From: a virus
Taxonomy: Duplodnaviria; Caudoviricetes
Reading direction: 5' to 3' (one strand)
Length of the DNA: 64,000 bases
IMG/VR virus record: IMGVR_UViG_3300029288_000131
Coordinates: 1-64,000 of that record
This document shows, one piece after another, positions 3,729-11,111 of the stretch. Position 1 is the stretch's first letter. Each line of letters starts with the position of its first letter. The notes beneath the pieces are model-generated. The model saw only the letters and a program-made list of their open reading frames with translations, did not search any database and was not told where the DNA came from. The translations under genes and the position numbers were made by a program.

Positions 3729-5116
3729 AGTCGAAACGCTACGAAGGTACAGACCTGCGTCGAGTCCTGTCAGGGATGGTGACTGACAGGACAGTCTGTT
3801 CCCGGATAGCATCCCAATGGCGGGACGGGGGATTGTTTGATGCTCCGTGGGCGAATCTGGTCGGTGATTGGGCAGTCAAGCATTTCACGAAGTACGGGCA
3901 GCCTCCGAACGGCCAGCTTCGAGGGCTGTTCGATGATTGGTCGAAGCGTGCTAATCCTCCGGAAGAGACATTGAGGGGTGTCGAGTCGTTCTTAGAACAT
4001 CTGTCGAACGAACACTCCCAGCAAGAAGCAGCTACCAGTGATTACATCTTGGACGTTGCCGGAAGGTACTTCAATCGCGTCCGGCTGAAGCAAGCGATAG
4101 ACGAGGCCGAGGATGAGCTGGAAAGGAACGATGTTGAATCTGCCAGGTCGAAGCTGACGTCACTGGGACGGGTTGAGTTGGGTGTTGGGGCGTTGATCAA
4201 GCCAGCCGACGATTTCGAGGCATGGGTCAGTGCCTTTGATGAGGAACGGCAGCGCCCGTTAGTTCGCTACCCAGGACGCCTGGACAAGCTGGTTGGACAA
4301 GCATTAGTTCGGGACAGCTTGATTTCATTCATGGGACCAGATAAGTCCTTCAAGAGTTTTTTCATGCTGGACCTTGCTTACCGTGCAATAAAGAACCGTT
4401 GCAGGGTGGCGTTCTTTGAGGTGGGGGATCTTGGGCAGCACGAGGTGTTGCTACGGTTGGGTGAGCGTGCTACGATGATCCCAAGGAAGCCTGGCAGGTA
4501 CAAGTTCCCGACAAGTGTCAGTTGGGACGGGAGCGAGGTCGAGTATGAGACTCGGGTGTTCAAAGAGGGGCTGCAAGATGCCGAGGCGTTCAGGACGTTC
4601 CGCAAGGTGTGTCGTCAACGGGACGTCTTTCGGTTGAGCTGCCATCCGAACAGCAGCATAAGCGTCGGGGGAGTGTTCTCGATCATCAAGGACTGGGAAC
4701 GCGAGTGCTGGGTGCCGGACGTGGTGGTGATTGACTATGCCGACATCTTGGCACCGCCGAGGGGTGTTCGGGAGTCGTTGGATCAGATAGACGAAACGTG
4801 GAAGCAGCTTCGACGGATGTCTCAGGAGCTGCATGCCCTTGTGGTGACTGCGTCCCAAAGCAATGCTGCTGCCTACAAGACCTCTTTGTTGGGTAAGCAT
4901 CACTTCAGCGGACGGAAGACCAAGATAGCTCATGTCAACGGAATGATTGGACTGAATGTCTCTGCCGAGGACCGTGAGAGAGGAGTGACTCGCCTGAACT
5001 GGGTCGTCCGTCGAAGCGGCCGGTACAACGAGAGATCAGCATTCGCCGTGGCTGGATGCTTAGCTGTATCTAATCCGGTGATCAAAGTTTGTGAACCCAA
5101 AAAAATTGAGAAATAG
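3725..5116 (+). CDS. dnaB: DnaB-like (SF4) replicative helicase
   Basis: Walker A variant GPDKSFKS, FFEVGD, Walker B VVVIDYADIL, VVTASQSN, IAHVNGMIGL. Confidence 0.85.
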   Translation: MKSKRYEGTDLRRVLSGMVTDRTVCSRIASQWRDGGLFDAPWANLVGDWAVKHFTKYGQPPNGQLRGLFDDWSKRANPPEETLRGVESFLEHLSNEHSQQEAATSDYILDVAGRYFNRVRLKQAIDEAEDELERNDVESARSKLTSLGRVELGVGALIKPADDFEAWVSAFDEERQRPLVRYPGRLDKLVGQALVRDSLISFMGPDKSFKSFFMLDLAYRAIKNRCRVAFFEVGDLGQHEVLLRLGERATMIPRKPGRYKFPTSVSWDGSEVEYETRVFKEGLQDAEAFRTFRKVCRQRDVFRLSCHPNSSISVGGVFSIIKDWERECWVPDVVVIDYADILAPPRGVRESLDQIDETWKQLRRMSQELHALVVTASQSNAAAYKTSLLGKHHFSGRKTKIAHVNGMIGLNVSAEDRERGVTRLNWVVRRSGRYNERSAFAVAGCLAVSNPVIKVCEPKKIEK

Positions 5117-5223
5117 TTGGGGCAATTTTCGGGGGTTCGATGATAATAGAGTGACGCACGAGTTGGGGTCGTGTGACCCTACGGTGATTTTCGTTGGTCC
5201 GTCTTTTCCTGAGGGAGGACAAA

Positions 5224-5955
5224 ATGGCTGTGAAGATTTCGAAGGACGACGCCGTTGCTGTGTGCACGGCACTGGGCTGGGCTACTTCGGCCAAGTGGGA
5301 CAAGAAACGGATGCTTCGCAAGCTCAAGGAGGTGGTCGAACTCGCCGAGGAGAACGAGGAGCTGATCGGTGAGGACGTTGTTGAGGATGACGACGAGCGT
5401 GAACGGCTCAACAAGTTGGTCAAGAGGATGGTGAAAGCCAAGGGTGATGTGGATGTCACTCTGACCACCGTCGAGGAGCCGGACGAGGAGGAGGAAACCG
5501 TCGAGGATACCGAGACCGAGACCGAGGACGCCGACGAGGAGGAGGAGGAAGAGGAGGAGGACGAGCCGGCACCGAAGAAGAAGTCTGCCAAGACCAAGAA
5601 GGCTCCGGCCAAGGACGAGGACGAGGACGAGGAGGAAGAGGAGAAGCCCAAGAAGGCGAAGGCGAAGGCCAAGAAGGCTCCGGCCAAGGAGGAGGACGAG
5701 GAGGATGACACCGTTCCGGCCAAGCCGAAGAAGGAGAAGAAGGCGAAGGTGAAGAACGGAGAGGTCGACAAGTTCGGTTCCCGTTTGGGCAGTCAGGCCG
5801 CGACCATCAATGCAGCTTTGTCGAAGAAGGCAAAGTCATTTGAGGCGATTGCCAAGGAAACCGATCTTACAATTGCTCGTGTCAAAGGACATACGAAGTT
5901 CTTGGCCGAGAAGGGAGTCGTCACGATTACGGACGATGGTGTTTCCCTTGTTTGA
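5224..5955 (+). CDS. acidic/Lys block-charged protein with C-terminal winged HTH
   Basis: GGAGG RBS before ATG 5224; poly-E/D and KKAPAK blocks; C-terminal SFEAIAKETDLTIARVKGHTKFLAEKG. Confidence 0.75.
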   Translation: MAVKISKDDAVAVCTALGWATSAKWDKKRMLRKLKEVVELAEENEELIGEDVVEDDDERERLNKLVKRMVKAKGDVDVTLTTVEEPDEEEETVEDTETETEDADEEEEEEEEDEPAPKKKSAKTKKAPAKDEDEDEEEEEKPKKAKAKAKKAPAKEEDEEDDTVPAKPKKEKKAKVKNGEVDKFGSRLGSQAATINAALSKKAKSFEAIAKETDLTIARVKGHTKFLAEKGVVTITDDGVSLV

Positions 5956-5964
5956 TTAGCTGAC

Positions 5965-6008
5965 ACACGATCCTCTTGTGCGAAGCTGTTTCGCACAAGA
6001 GGTCGTGT
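5965..6008 (+). promoter_or_regulatory. long hairpin upstream of queD operon
   Basis: Perfect 13-bp stem CCTCTTGTGCGAA/TTCGCACAAGAGG extended by ACACGA/TCGTGT. Confidence 0.6.
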
Positions 6009-6031
6009 CTGTTTCGATCGGAGGAGAAGAG

Positions 6032-6466
6032 ATGCGAATAATCTACAAGCACTCATTCGATGCTGCCCACCGCTTGTTCGGATACAACGGTCTTTGCAAG
6101 AACCTCCACGGGCATCGGTATGTCGTGGAGTTTGTTCTTGAGGGAGAGAAGCTAGACAGTCTTGGTATGTTGGTCGACTTTGGAGTGTTGAAGAAGATAC
6201 TTGGTGGCTGGATCGATAGGTGGTGGGATCATGCTGTCTTATACAATGCTGCTGGTGATTTACAGATGTTGGCTGCTCTTGGTAAGATCGACGGGGGCTC
6301 CCGTCGATTTGGATTCAGTGAGAATCCAACGGCCGAGAATATGGCCAAGCATCTCTTGGCAATTGGGGATCAGTTGCTAAGGGAGGCAATTCCACATCCC
6401 AGCTACTCATTGGTGGCAGTGCGGGTTTGGGAGACACCGGACCGCGCAGCGGAGGCTACGAAATGA
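6032..6466 (+). CDS. queD: 6-carboxytetrahydropterin synthase
   Basis: FDAAHRL..YNGLCKNLHGHRY, GMLVDF, ENPTAEN, VWET; GGAGGAG RBS. Confidence 0.93.
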   Translation: MRIIYKHSFDAAHRLFGYNGLCKNLHGHRYVVEFVLEGEKLDSLGMLVDFGVLKKILGGWIDRWWDHAVLYNAAGDLQMLAALGKIDGGSRRFGFSENPTAENMAKHLLAIGDQLLREAIPHPSYSLVAVRVWETPDRAAEATK

Positions 6467-7086
6467 AATACAGCATCAACGAAATCTTCTACTCCATTCA
6501 AGGAGAGGGAATGAACGCTGGACGGCCGGCAATCTTCGTTCGCTTCTCTGGGTGCAATCTCAAGTGTGTTCTCGCCGAGCAGGGGTTCGATTGTGACACG
6601 AACTTCGAACGTGGGAGTCTAATGACTTTGGAGTCGATTGAGGACGCAGCATGGCGGGAGTTTGGTGGTCAGCCGGGTTCCGATCCTGCGTGGCCAAATG
6701 GCTTGCTGATGGTGTTGACGGGAGGGGAGCCCTCACTACAGCTTGACAGGCATTTCTTGAGCTACTTCCAAAGCCGTGGATTTGAGGTAGCAATTGAGAC
6801 GAACGGCACGAGACCGCTTCCAGAGGGGTTGAATTGGATTTGTGTTAGCCCGAAGCGGGGGACGGAGATTGTTGTACGATTCGCTGATGAAGTGAAGTAT
6901 GTCTTAGCTGCTGGACAGGAGCCTTGGAACGTTCCCAATCTTGGGAGCACTTGGCAATTGATCAGTCCGGCATTCAAGGGACTACAGCCAGATGATGAAG
7001 CAATCAAGTGGTGTTTGGAGTACGTGAAAAGGAATCCACAGTATCGGTTGTCAATTCAGTTGCACAAGATCATAGGTGTAAGATGA
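6463..7086 (+). CDS. queE: 7-carboxy-7-deazaguanine synthase (radical SAM)
   Basis: EIFYSIQGEG, FVRFSGCNLKC...CDT, LTGGEP, IETNGT, VSPK, RLSIQLHK. Confidence 0.95.
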   Translation: MKYSINEIFYSIQGEGMNAGRPAIFVRFSGCNLKCVLAEQGFDCDTNFERGSLMTLESIEDAAWREFGGQPGSDPAWPNGLLMVLTGGEPSLQLDRHFLSYFQSRGFEVAIETNGTRPLPEGLNWICVSPKRGTEIVVRFADEVKYVLAAGQEPWNVPNLGSTWQLISPAFKGLQPDDEAIKWCLEYVKRNPQYRLSIQLHKIIGVR

Positions 7087-7958
7087 TGTTGAAACTATCA
7101 TGGAATGATGTTCGTGCGAGGGCTTCTGTCGTTCTCTCGCAGATGAGGGCAAGTCACTTACCAACGCCTCGGCCAAAGGTCTATCCAGTACCGCGGGGTG
7201 GGATTTACGCGGCTTTGTTGCTTGGTGAATGTGTGGAGGTAGTAGAGCATTTCGAAAGGGCCGATTGCTGCATCGATGACATCATCGACACGGGCAAAAC
7301 CAAGGAACAATTCTTGGACAAGCCATTCTTCGCATTGGTGGATAAGCTGACCGAGCAATTGGATGGTTGGGTGGAGTTTCCTTGGGAACGAATGAGCAAC
7401 GAGCAGGGACCAGAGGAAAGCATCCGTCGGATCATTGAGTTCATTGGAGATGACCCAAATCGTGAGGGATTGCTCAAGACACCGCAGCGGGTAGTTCGAT
7501 CATATAGCGAATTGTTCTCTGGTTATGGCAAGGAGCCGGCGGATGTGATTACGGTGTTTGAGGACGGTGCCTGTGACGAGATGGTGATTGTGCGAGGAGT
7601 GGAGTTCGTCTCGTTCTGCGAGCATCATATGTTGCCGTTCATTGGTACGGCTCATATTGCGTACGTCCCGGACAAGCGAGTGATTGGGGTATCCAAGTTG
7701 GTGAGGCTGCTTGAAATCTATGCTCGTCGGTTACAGATTCAGGAGCGTCTGTGTCAACAGGTGACGAAGGCATTGGACAAGCACTTGAAGCCGAAGGGAT
7801 CTGCTTGTGTTGTGATGGCAAAGCATCTTTGCATGTCATGCCGTGGTGTTGGAAAACAACACTCGGAAATGGTAACATCAAGTCTTACTGGATCTTTTTT
7901 GAAGTCGCCTGAAGCTCGTGGAGAGCTTTTCAGTTTGATTCAAGGAGCATTGAGATGA
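7083..7958 (+). CDS. folE: fusion: purine phosphoribosyltransferase-like domain + GTP cyclohydrolase I
   Basis: N-term VPRGG, IDDIIDTGKT, WVEFPWE (gpt-like); C-term REGLLKTPQRV, SFCEHHMLPF, GVSKL, RLQIQERL, HLCMSCRG. Confidence 0.92.
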   Translation: MMLKLSWNDVRARASVVLSQMRASHLPTPRPKVYPVPRGGIYAALLLGECVEVVEHFERADCCIDDIIDTGKTKEQFLDKPFFALVDKLTEQLDGWVEFPWERMSNEQGPEESIRRIIEFIGDDPNREGLLKTPQRVVRSYSELFSGYGKEPADVITVFEDGACDEMVIVRGVEFVSFCEHHMLPFIGTAHIAYVPDKRVIGVSKLVRLLEIYARRLQIQERLCQQVTKALDKHLKPKGSACVVMAKHLCMSCRGVGKQHSEMVTSSLTGSFLKSPEARGELFSLIQGALR

Positions 7959-8728
7959 GAAAGGTGGTTTGGATTACCACGCAATTTGAAGCGTTTCATC
8001 GATGGCTACATGCACCTGACGATGTGAGTTTTCTGCGAGACTTTCATCGTCATGTTTTTCATGTGAGACTCGAAGTCCTTGTCTCGGGAAGTGATCGCGA
8101 AGTTGAGTTTATACAACTCAAACATCGGGTTGATAACTATATCGGTCTCCATTTCGAGAATAAGTGTATGGAACGGTCGTGTGAGATGATTGCACAGACT
8201 CTTTTGGAGGAGTTCAATGCGGTTGTGGTGGCGGTGTCCGAAGATGGAGAGAATGGAGCTACGGTTTCTCGACCGTGTTCAATGATTGCTCGTGACAAGG
8301 TTTTCGTGGGGATTGAAGCGGAGGGACCTCATCGTGGTAAGTGTACTCTATTTGTCCCAGGTTGCGTAACTCCTTCAAGATTGGGTGCAGTTGTTGGCGG
8401 TGGAAAGCTTGAGCTCTATGAGGTAGAGCATGTTTACTACGGTGCAGGGTGGGATCATGCCTTGTCTTATCACACCTTACTCTATCTTAGGGATTCACTG
8501 AAGTTGCCAACTACGGTTGAGGGGGATCATCTCGATAGGTTTGGCGACATCTTTCAGAAATGGGAGGGACTCACTGCTGTGTCTGTGAAGGATGCAGGCA
8601 AGCTGAATTTGTGTCATTACACGAAACGGATTGAGGGAAGTCTTATAATATGGAGTGGCAAAGAGGGGACGTTTGTTACTTCGATTCACGACCCGTTATT
8701 TGATGGCGACTTTGTTGTGGAGGACTAG
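7955..8728 (+). CDS. dpdL: DpdL-like T-fold protein (putative CDG decarboxylase) fused to an unknown C-terminal domain
   Basis: LRDFHRHVF fits the LxxxHRHxF signature as I recall it; REVEF, SCEMIA, VSEDGENGA; extra ~150 aa after residue ~105. Confidence 0.7.
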   Translation: MRKVVWITTQFEAFHRWLHAPDDVSFLRDFHRHVFHVRLEVLVSGSDREVEFIQLKHRVDNYIGLHFENKCMERSCEMIAQTLLEEFNAVVVAVSEDGENGATVSRPCSMIARDKVFVGIEAEGPHRGKCTLFVPGCVTPSRLGAVVGGGKLELYEVEHVYYGAGWDHALSYHTLLYLRDSLKLPTTVEGDHLDRFGDIFQKWEGLTAVSVKDAGKLNLCHYTKRIEGSLIIWSGKEGTFVTSIHDPLFDGDFVVED

Positions 8729-8731
8729 TCT

Positions 8732-9826
8732 ATGCTGTTCTATCTCCCATTAGAAAGCTACGTCGAGCGTTACACCTACTTCATGTCTTGTCGGGGAGGC
8801 TGGACTGAAGATTGGTTGAAGCATTATGGAGTAGAGTTTGTTCGTGTGGAGGGAGAAGAGAGCAGCAAGACAATCAATGTGGGAAGTGTGCTCGATGCAT
8901 TTGGCAGGTGTTCGTATGCAATGAGTCAGGTTGCTAAGATGGTCGAGTTTATTCGGAATGGTTGTGTCGAGGATGGCGATGTGATATACACTGAAGATTT
9001 CTGGCACCCTGGAATTGAGTCACTTTTCTATGTAAGGGCATTGACGGGGATTCGTTTCAAGGTGGGATGCTTTATTCATGCTCAGTCCATTGACGATGCC
9101 GATTTCACACACTCGATGCGTGGTTGGATGCGTCCGATGGAAGTTGGAATGAGTCATGGATACGATTATGTGTTTACTTGCTCCCACCTTCTTCGTAACT
9201 TGGCCGTTGATGCTGGTTATAATCCATCATCTCTTTACAAGGTGGGATTGCCATACAACAGTCGTCGCTTGCGGGAACAGCTTTGCGCTATGGGGTTTAG
9301 AGAGAAGGAGAAGGAGCCGTTTGTCCTTTTCTCGTCGCGGTTTGACGCTGAGAAAAATCCACACCTCTTCATGGATGTGGTTGAAGCTTGTCCTGATGTT
9401 CAGTTCAAGTTGGTGAAACCGAGAAAGCACATAACCAACGATCAGACGGTGCTTGATCGACTGAATGCGATTGTGAATTGCTGTGGCAATCTGGAAGTAG
9501 TGGATACATCAGACAAGATGGTGTATTACGATCTGCTTTCGAGGGCGAAGGTTCAGTTCAACTGTGCGAAGCAGGATTGGGTCTCGTGGACTCTGTTGGA
9601 GGCCGTGACGTTTCGTTGTAATCCACTCTATCCACGTTGGAAGGACTTTCCGTTTGAATTGGATGGTTTTGTAGAAGACCATATCTACGAGAACGAGGAT
9701 TTGAAAAGTGCTGTTTCTCAGTTACGTCGTTTGTTGCACAAGGAGTTTGATCTGGGGTTGTTAGGAATTGCAACACGACACGATGAGTCATGGAAGAGTT
9801 ATCTCGAGGTCATGGAGTTGATATGA
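8732..9826 (+). CDS. GT-B fold glycosyltransferase
   Basis: Two-domain size; FVLFSSRFDAEKNPHLF, YYDLLSRAKVQF, WTLLEAVT...PLYP resemble GT4-like C-terminal motifs. Confidence 0.75.
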   Translation: MLFYLPLESYVERYTYFMSCRGGWTEDWLKHYGVEFVRVEGEESSKTINVGSVLDAFGRCSYAMSQVAKMVEFIRNGCVEDGDVIYTEDFWHPGIESLFYVRALTGIRFKVGCFIHAQSIDDADFTHSMRGWMRPMEVGMSHGYDYVFTCSHLLRNLAVDAGYNPSSLYKVGLPYNSRRLREQLCAMGFREKEKEPFVLFSSRFDAEKNPHLFMDVVEACPDVQFKLVKPRKHITNDQTVLDRLNAIVNCCGNLEVVDTSDKMVYYDLLSRAKVQFNCAKQDWVSWTLLEAVTFRCNPLYPRWKDFPFELDGFVEDHIYENEDLKSAVSQLRRLLHKEFDLGLLGIATRHDESWKSYLEVMELI

Positions 9827-10860
9827 TAGGGTTCAGTGTTGTTGGCGATTTTTCTTTCGCTGACCAAGCTGCAGTCGAGCTTGTTGTTGATGGGTGTGTG
9901 GGTCTTTTGTTTAGCTATGCTGTGATGGATGAAAGAAAAAGAGTAGGGACGTTTTTCTTGCGATTGAAAGGAGAGACAATGGATAGGTGTCCTCTGTTCC
10001 TTGATTCTGGTGCACACGGCCTTTATACCCGCGAGGTGATGAAGAAAGTTCCCGTAAGAATGCGACATCGTGTCAACCCGTATGAGTTCTACGAAACTAA
10101 TGGTTTCTGGGAATACGTCGATTCTTACGCTGCTTTTCTAAAGTTACATCCAGATATTCGCTTGTATGCTAATGTCGATGTAATTTTCAATCCGAAGCTT
10201 TCATGGAAGGTCTTGAAGTATCTTGAAAGAGAGCATGGGCTGTCGCCGGTTCCTGTGATTCATTTCGGAACTGAGGTAAGGTGGGTGAAGCGTCACTTGG
10301 ATGCAGGATATGAATTTCTTGGGATAGGTGGATTGGGACAGGAAGCACAACGGCGTGATTATGTTGGGTGGGCCGATACAGTTTTTCGTCTTGTTTGTTC
10401 TGGTGCAGACAGAATGCCTTTAGTACGCACTCATGGGTTTGCTATCGGTTCTCCATCATTGATGCGTCGTTATCCGTGGTGGAGTGTAGATAGTGCAACG
10501 TGGGTAAAGTCGGCTGGGTTTGGAAAAATCTTTGTCCCTAGGAAGAAGAGTGGGAAGTGGGATTTCTTTCACCATTTGGGAATCGATGTTAGTGATAAAT
10601 CTCCTAGTCTGCAAGTCAAGGGACAGCATATTACAAATCTGTCACCGGGGGAAAAGAGGGCTGTGATTGAATGGCTAGATGAGATAGGAGTTCCATTGGG
10701 AAGTATGACTGATTCAAAGAATGATACACAAAAGACGGTGATGAATCATCGAAGTTGTAGAATACTTGCGAACCTTCACTTCTTCAAGGGACTTGTTCGC
10801 AGCTTGCCGTGGCCTAGACCGTTCGGTGCCAGAAAGGTGGTAGGAAGGATTGGACTATGA
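9823..10860 (+). CDS. dpdA: DNA-guanine transglycosylase (TGT-like), 7-deazaguanine insertion enzyme; alternative start 9979
   Basis: LFLDSGAH, YANVDVI, PVPVIH, LGIGG, THGFA, YPWWSVDSATW; within queD/queE/folE operon. Confidence 0.88.
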   Translation: MIGFSVVGDFSFADQAAVELVVDGCVGLLFSYAVMDERKRVGTFFLRLKGETMDRCPLFLDSGAHGLYTREVMKKVPVRMRHRVNPYEFYETNGFWEYVDSYAAFLKLHPDIRLYANVDVIFNPKLSWKVLKYLEREHGLSPVPVIHFGTEVRWVKRHLDAGYEFLGIGGLGQEAQRRDYVGWADTVFRLVCSGADRMPLVRTHGFAIGSPSLMRRYPWWSVDSATWVKSAGFGKIFVPRKKSGKWDFFHHLGIDVSDKSPSLQVKGQHITNLSPGEKRAVIEWLDEIGVPLGSMTDSKNDTQKTVMNHRSCRILANLHFFKGLVRSLPWPRPFGARKVVGRIGL

Positions 10861-11111
10861 TTATCTTCTTCTCGGGAAATACGTCAAGAGAAGACTGGCC
10901 AGAGTTGACGATGGAGGATGATGAAAGTTTGGGAGTTATGCTTACTTATCATGAGATACACTCAAAGAATAAACAGACAAGCAGAAGGCTAGAAGAGCTG
11001 GTTGCTAGAGAGGAGAATGACCGTGGGAAGGTACAAAAGAGACTCGGTATACCAGACAAGACAAAGAGTGGCAGGAAACCGTCCAGGAGTGTATCGGGTA
11101 TGGACAAGTGA
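10857..11111 (+). CDS. small protein resembling first beta-alpha-beta unit of DpdA-type barrels
   Basis: MIIFFSGN...GVMLTY; ATGA overlap with dpdA; 3' part overlaps next ORF. Confidence 0.45.
   Translation: MIIFFSGNTSREDWPELTMEDDESLGVMLTYHEIHSKNKQTSRRLEELVAREENDRGKVQKRLGIPDKTKSGRKPSRSVSGMDK

Follow-up and report, generated by a model that had tools for sequence, protein, structure and literature searches.

Modification of phage DNA with 7-deazaguanine derivatives is an actively studied strategy against restriction and CRISPR, and its accepted gene set comprises FolE (GTP cyclohydrolase I), QueD, QueE, QueC or DpdL, and DpdA. The FolE proteins of the model phages 9g, CAjan, Rosebush, iggy and phiST lack any N-terminal phosphoribosyltransferase (PRTase) domain. 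Here we describe a FolE gene that carries such a domain, at positions 7083-7958 (+) of a 64,000-nucleotide stretch of viral DNA (hereafter the window; positions 1 to 64,000 of the IMG/VR record IMGVR_UViG_3300029288_000131, Caudoviricetes). The source is an uncultured phage with a record of 89 kb and 53.8 % GC; its FolE domain, with the catalytic residues and the position in a queD/queE/dpdA cluster, is the same as in the model phages.

Among cellular enzymes, the new domain compares best with Gpt/XGPRT, for which we used the structures from Escherichia coli (1NUL, 1A95-1A98, 4JLS) and Yersinia pestis (6KP5, 5XTK) and the NCBIfam model NF006613. Fold and order of elements are the same (N-terminal hood strand, helix, xRGG pyrophosphate (PPi) loop, DDxxDTGxT loop for phosphoribosyl pyrophosphate (PRPP), Lys after strand beta5, and WxxxPW(D/E) hood), and the alignment runs end to end; the phage domain differs in its fusion to FolE, in an identity of only ~21-25 %, and in deletions at loop II and before the hood. 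The 6-oxopurine PRTases of Sulfolobus (HGXPRT, 4Z1O), Pyrococcus horikoshii (1VDM) and Helicobacter pylori (XGHPRT, 7KL6) match as well as Gpt does (Z 10.3, 9.9 and 10.2, respectively) and have the same WxxFPW(D/E) hood motif, but these archaeal and epsilonproteobacterial enzymes are full-size (147-179 aa), stand-alone and cellular, and none is fused to FolE. TubE and ToyH resemble the phage system in that a PRTase is encoded together with homologues of FolE, QueD and QueE, the tubercidin pathway proceeding without QueC and using 7-carboxy-7-deazaguanine (CDG). They are, however, full-length PF00156 enzymes of actinomycete secondary-metabolite clusters without a DNA transglycosylase, whereas the phage domain is Gpt-like, conserves the Asp expected to face N7 of the purine, and is almost always accompanied by DpdA.

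We found no paper on a PRTase-FolE fusion or on guanine salvage linked to DpdA, and a purine-salvage domain on FolE is never mentioned in the papers on 7-deazaguanine DNA modification that were consulted, probably because the five model phages named above do not have it. The fusion is real, widespread in viruses, and unstudied.

A reduced Gpt-like domain in frame with FolE

The gene is a single stop-free open reading frame (ORF) of 291 aa, with the following features:

7083..7958, +, whole gene of the fusion protein, mini-PRTase followed by FolE (open frame; ATGA overlap with the queE stop; AlphaFold (AF2) model with a mean predicted local distance difference test score (pLDDT) of 94.2)
7083..7400, +, loop-less Gpt/XGPRT-like PRTase domain, residues 1-106, predicted by profile search, hhalign, Foldseek and VIA-align
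7188..7202, +, PPi loop VPRGG, residues 36-40 (P37, G39 and G40 invariant; R38, aligned with Gpt R37, in at least 90 %)
7272..7301, +, PRPP-binding loop IDDIIDTGKT, residues 64-73, conforming to the type I PRTase pattern of two acidic residues, hydrophobic residues and D-T/S-G-x-T (no variation at D65, D66, D69, G71 and T73 among 39 fused homologues)
7344..7346, +, K88, aligned with Gpt K115 (at least 90 % conserved)
7368..7388, +, hood motif WVEFPWE, residues 96-102 (W96 and E102 invariant; F99, P100 and W101 in at least 90 %)
7413..7955, +, FolE domain, residues 111-291 (PF01227, NF006825, TIGR00063, Foldseek)

An earlier note on this DNA, made from the letters alone, had read the gene as a PRTase of about 100 aa with the three motifs VPRGG, IDDIIDTGKT and WVEFPWE, in frame with an intact FolE. 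The motifs lie where the list places them and the frame is uninterrupted; the two halves are taken up in turn below.

The N-terminal half escapes family models. As a single sequence, residues 1-110 gave no Pfam match (PF00156 included) even at E 10, and phmmer against the PDB returned PRTase fragments only, none of them significant; some relatives weakly match PF00156, as do 19-37 % of the Atlas cluster members. A profile of four such domains, in turn, matched E. coli XGPRT in the PDB over its full length (E 3e-8), together with purine PRTases of Pyrococcus and Sulfolobus, and a profile of 53 domains was aligned by hhalign with E. coli Gpt at 97.8 % probability (E 7e-13; 109 columns covering Gpt 1-142). 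Because a Foldseek search with the full-length model returned FolE chains only, the domain was modelled separately (AF2, pLDDT 93.7). The best Foldseek matches of this domain-only model were all purine PRTases (E 7e-6 to 7e-4), with the XGPRT structures 4jls, 6kp5 and 1nul on top. In an exhaustive VIA-align search the top 36 matches all had the PRTase fold, the best being Yersinia XGPRT (Z 10.6), and XGPRT, HGXPRT and purine PRTases scored Z 10.6-9.9. The predicted core has one strand fewer than Gpt, and in the model its alpha/beta core and hood superpose on solved PRTases. The resemblance to XGPRT is well beyond chance. Since the PF00156 threshold is missed while profile and predicted fold agree, we file the domain as a divergent, reduced relative that is recognised by profile and fold and not by a family model; on this basis residues 1-106 are assigned to the type I PRTases of the Gpt/XGPRT kind, in reduced form.

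The suspicion that the domain is short for a PRTase was borne out: it comprises ~105 aa compared with 152 aa in Gpt, ~20 residues being deleted at strand beta2 and the flexible loop II and ~10 before the hood Trp. The deletion at loop II appears in every alignment and is common to fused and stand-alone homologues. Conservation was assessed in 39 fused and 52 mostly stand-alone homologues, and Gpt numbering was verified on the gpt gene of strain MG1655. In the alignment D65/D66 correspond to Gpt D88/D89, D69 to D92, T70-T73 to T93-T96, W96 to W134 and E102 to D140. At each of the mapped Gpt positions (R37, D88/D89, D92, T93-T96, K115, W134 and D140) the residue is either invariant or shared by at least 90 % of the fused as well as the stand-alone relatives. 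We take Gpt K115 (K88 here) to contact the 6-oxo group of the purine and W134 (W96 here) to stack on the base; Gpt D92, with which D69 is aligned, is the proposed catalytic base and presumably one of the base-binding residues, and the Asp of Gpt and HGPRT at this position presumably faces N7 of the purine, following the established mechanism of HGPRT and XGPRT. Such conservation would be expected of a working ligand site and not of a linker or scaffold.

The FolE half is intact by sequence and model. Residues 111-286 match PF01227 with 227.5 bits (cut-off 27; E 1e-67), and the protein exceeds the cut-offs of TIGR00063 (211.4 bits; cut-off 181.6) and NF006825 (240.6 bits; cut-off 174). The zinc-binding and catalytic residues of the CEHH...HxC pattern (C179, H181, H182, H248 and C250) are invariant in the 39 homologues, and the full-length model superposes on Mycobacterium tuberculosis FolE (9p8z) with a target-normalised template modelling (TM) score of 0.91 and a root-mean-square deviation of 1.3 A over 181 columns (Foldseek). 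Two fusions among metagenomic proteins, P0052 (583 aa) and P0171 (582 aa), carry an HNH-containing intein inside the FolE domain, with matches to Intein_splicing, HNH_3 and Hint_2.

Translation starts at 7083, because the ATG overlaps the stop codon of the upstream queE as ATGA and 38 homologues share this start position in the alignment; a GTG at 7008 was considered and rejected on the same grounds.

Gene neighbourhood and distribution

The fusion gene belongs to a translationally coupled operon in the order queD, queE, fusion, dpdL-like gene, a gene for 364 aa, and dpdA, whose remaining members in the window are:

5978..6466, +, QueD (6-carboxy-tetrahydropterin (CPH4) synthase), with the CxxxHGH motif as CKNLHGH in the sequence (PF01242, 2e-28; phrog_2389)
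6427..7086, +, QueE (CDG synthase; phrog_2076, 4.5e-31)
7955..8728, +, DpdL-like T-fold domain with a C-terminal part of ~150 aa (LRDFHRHVF, conforming to LxxxHRHxF; phrog_17812 on residues 2-105)
8732..9826, +, gene for 364 aa between dpdL and dpdA (no Pfam or PHROG match)
9790..10860, +, DpdA-type DNA transglycosylase (phrog_887, 4.7e-29)

The motif LxxxHRHxF is the DpdL signature as defined in PMC10516641. Since no QueC was found in the entire 89-kb record, the modified base is predicted to be 7-deazaguanine (dDG) or CDG (dCDG) in DNA. By tblastn, seven of the eight well-flanked loci of the DpdL type contain a relative of the gene at 8732-9826, whereas the 16 loci of the QueC type have none, and for this reason it is assigned to the dDG branch of the pathway. 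The C-terminal ~150 aa of the DpdL-like protein (257 aa in total) have no family match and recur in only two of 17 DpdL-bearing loci (L006, L021). Between a helicase gene and queD, at 5194-5955 (+), lies an ORF of 253 aa without a family match, which has an extremely acidic and lysine-rich centre of low complexity (runs of E/D and of K/A/P) and a winged-helix-like C-terminal end. A megablast search with window positions 5000-11000 matched no isolated phage, so the virus has no close cultured relative.

The domain was sought in a database of 1.84 billion cluster representatives, of which 355 match at E <= 0.001. A survey of how the fusion is distributed, which the earlier note had called for, covered 82 viral contigs gathered by a similarity-ranked retrieval that favours fused relatives. 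FolE comes after the domain in 81 of them, and in 79 of these 81 a single frame with no intervening stop codon spans the two. Of the 28 contigs that extend for at least 5 kb to either side, all 28 encode QueE, 27 DpdA, 25 QueD, 16 QueC and 8 DpdL, and QueC and DpdL never occur together. The fusion is also found in 34 records of isolated phages, including Nipunavirus (NP1, PaMx25), Vibrio phages of the VpKK5 type, the Sphingomonas phage MMDA13, and phages of Stenotrophomonas, Xanthomonas and Variovorax; in all 34 the gene is labelled GTP cyclohydrolase only.

The domain also exists on its own. Phage contigs contain complete genes for stand-alone proteins of 108-165 aa, which group into viral clusters of 80-90 members, and some stand-alone relatives bear automatic names such as "phosphoribosyl transferase domain". 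Many of those with 140-165 aa (P0048-P0166, alignment A3) retain, after the domain, a segment resembling the first helix of FolE (xEDNxxRxLQFIG) before they diverge, which suggests either that they arose as truncated fusions or that the helix serves to bind FolE in trans. In another phage contig, one stand-alone gene is preceded by a gene (L085:88-1047) for a protein of 319 aa that combines an HNH endonuclease-like N-terminus with a QueD (PTPS) domain. In three contigs of metagenome-assembled genomes (MAGs) from Clostridia and Methylobacterium (L098, L102 and L111), the domain is a separate gene inside a queD/queE/folE cluster. In the Clostridia contig CALXZC010000001.1 (L098:7878-8881) a mini-PRTase of 174 aa is followed after 3 nt by a GuaD-type guanine deaminase (match to the Bacillus subtilis enzyme 1tiy, E 3e-37), with DpdA, QueC and a YhhQ-type precursor transporter upstream of the mini-PRTase and with QueE and FolE also in the cluster. 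A divergent fused paralog that misses the last FolE helix occurs in two Dehalococcoidia chromosomes (OZ240240.1 and CBDBON010000003.1; L095:7995-8870 and L094). There it is flanked, in divergent orientation, by the gene of a Vut_1/YhhQ queuosine-precursor transporter, in a region of housekeeping genes. Both genomes encode a canonical FolE of 189 aa elsewhere and a tRNA-guanine transglycosylase (TGT), and have no QueC; a search for preQ1 or other riboswitches beside the paralog found tRNAs only.

Proposed guanine salvage and the alternatives

From the homology, the predicted fold, the conservation at the ligand site and the genes found alongside we infer a substrate, a catalysis and a physiological role: the domain may be a guanine PRTase through which the guanine released by DpdA is taken away and reused, a reading that we prefer tentatively. 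DpdA would exchange guanine of the phage genome for a 7-deazaguanine that FolE, QueD, QueE and DpdL derive from GTP, so that for each GTP consumed one guanine would be freed from DNA. With PRPP, the mini-PRTase would convert the freed guanine to guanosine monophosphate (GMP), and the guanylate kinase and nucleoside diphosphate (NDP) kinase of the host would bring GMP back to GTP. Two effects would follow, the removal of a poorly soluble base that, by analogy with the ping-pong mechanism of TGT enzymes, should compete with the incoming deazaguanine in a reversible half-reaction, and the refilling of the GTP pool drained by FolE. By a rough estimate, 100 genomes of 89 kb in which 10-100 % of the G is replaced would release guanine to ~0.8-8 mM per fL of cell, which is similar to a cellular GTP pool. 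Fusion to FolE would fix the two activities at 1:1, with ten PRTase domains on the FolE decamer, and would give no direct substrate channelling.

In favour of guanine salvage, homology and predicted fold point specifically to Gpt/XGPRT with the 6-oxopurine contacts kept, and DpdA is a near-constant companion (27 of the 28 well-flanked loci). Because the domain serves QueC-type (16) and DpdL-type (8) clusters alike, its ligand should be one that the two share, for example guanine, PRPP or GTP, as opposed to one specific deazaguanine end product. The complete stand-alone genes in sizeable clusters argue for an autonomous activity, and the guanine deaminase in the Clostridia contig would be a second enzyme acting on free guanine, albeit a single, anecdotal case. 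The earlier note had proposed that guanine released by DpdA is returned to GMP and feeds FolE in a closed loop. Recycling toward GTP fits best with the evidence just given. The fusion alone, on the other hand, does not complete the loop, because two host kinases are required to turn GMP into GTP, and because the catalytic loop II is missing, the recycling can be put forward only tentatively. A bolder version, in which the 105-aa domain is fully active without loop II, sustains a self-feeding cycle (guanine to GMP to GTP to FolE to the next deazaguanine) and sets how completely G is rewritten, is conceivable but doubtful.

Several observations weigh against guanine salvage. The ~20 residues lost at strand beta2 and loop II (Gpt roughly 52-72) include R69, and the Gpt equivalog model NF006613 scored the single sequence with 13.7 bits against a cut-off of 138 bits, covering the PRPP loop only. 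FolE occurs in 387 records of isolated phages and the domain in only 34 of them, and 9g, Rosebush, iggy, phiST and phiSM, on which experiments have been done, are absent from these 34; the domain is thus accessory and dispensable for the modification. Hosts usually have a Gpt or Hpt of their own. No further guanine deaminase was found as a neighbour among all fetched loci, so that the Clostridia contig stands alone, and no DpdA, QueD or QueE lies within 8 kb of the Dehalococcoidia paralog.

Some of these observations would suit a different role, that of a ligand sensor whose catalysis is lost or very slow. PRPP, guanine, GMP/GTP or (p)ppGpp would occupy the former active site, and the domain would adjust FolE allosterically within the decamer, so that deazaguanine synthesis follows the purine supply or the amount of guanine that has left the DNA. 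Loop II, needed for closing the active site of PRTases, is missing; the FolE-fused Dehalococcoidia paralog has no DpdA nearby, and 79 of the 81 viral loci keep the two parts in one frame. PRTase folds have been reused as regulators, and PyrR (1w30) and PurR (1o57) are among the VIA-align matches, the third-best being a PRTase-like Neisseria protein with bound ppGpp (5vog, Z 10.2); moreover, (p)ppGpp binds the active site of HPRT through the same PRPP loop (PMC6783271). The sensor is the main rival of guanine salvage, and we consider it the less likely of the two. Unfused copies of the domain are encoded within the same clusters, stand-alone proteins of 108-165 aa have no output domain, and the invariance or near-invariance of D69 (aligned with the proposed catalytic base) and of the base-contacting Lys and Trp exceeds what PRPP sensing alone would need. 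A role as an oligomerisation or stability module of FolE, as a hydrolase of PRPP or nucleotides or, in the case of the unfused proteins, as a sponge for small molecules would be in keeping with the small, loop-less fold and with the FolE-like first helix (xEDNxxRxLQFIG) of many stand-alone proteins, which could dock onto FolE; it is improbable given that the strict conservation falls on ligand-contacting residues and not on surface patches.

Very improbable, in our judgement, is a 7-deazapurine PRTase that converts CDG, preQ0 or 7-deazaguanine (DG) with PRPP into a nucleotide, either for incorporation at the nucleotide level, as the earlier note had offered as its second option, or for another product. 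The precedent is TubE, a CDG-specific, PRPP-dependent PRTase of tubercidin biosynthesis, a pathway that likewise lacks QueC (PMC6112128; bioRxiv 10.64898/2026.04.15.718813), as does the virus described here, and QueC-type and DpdL-type clusters both pass through CDG as an intermediate. Yet 27 of the 28 well-flanked loci encode a DNA transglycosylase, an enzyme for inserting the free base, and the insertion of deazaguanine is held to be post-replicative in all such phages (PMC10516641). The domain is also indifferent to which deazaguanine its cluster makes. The invariant Asp69 aligns with the Asp that faces N7, and a carbon bearing a 7-carboxylate or a 7-cyano group would lose this contact or be repelled; furthermore, no kinase, reductase or Nudix partner for such a nucleotide was seen.

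Consequences for phage DNA modification

Whatever the function of the domain, many annotations of "GTP cyclohydrolase I" overlook a domain, as the 355 cluster representatives show. A sensor would, as far as we know, be the first case of allosteric control described for a phage FolE. The question is easily tested, because culturable carriers with laboratory hosts exist (Nipunavirus on Pseudomonas and VpKK5-like phages on Vibrio). An active domain would represent a minimal PRTase scaffold and, if fully active without loop II, the smallest purine PRTase known. If guanine salvage is its role, the removal of guanine would also pull the base exchange toward completion, and, with an active domain, the fate of the expelled guanine and the cost in GTP would become explicit parts of the 7-deazaguanine pathway in these phages.

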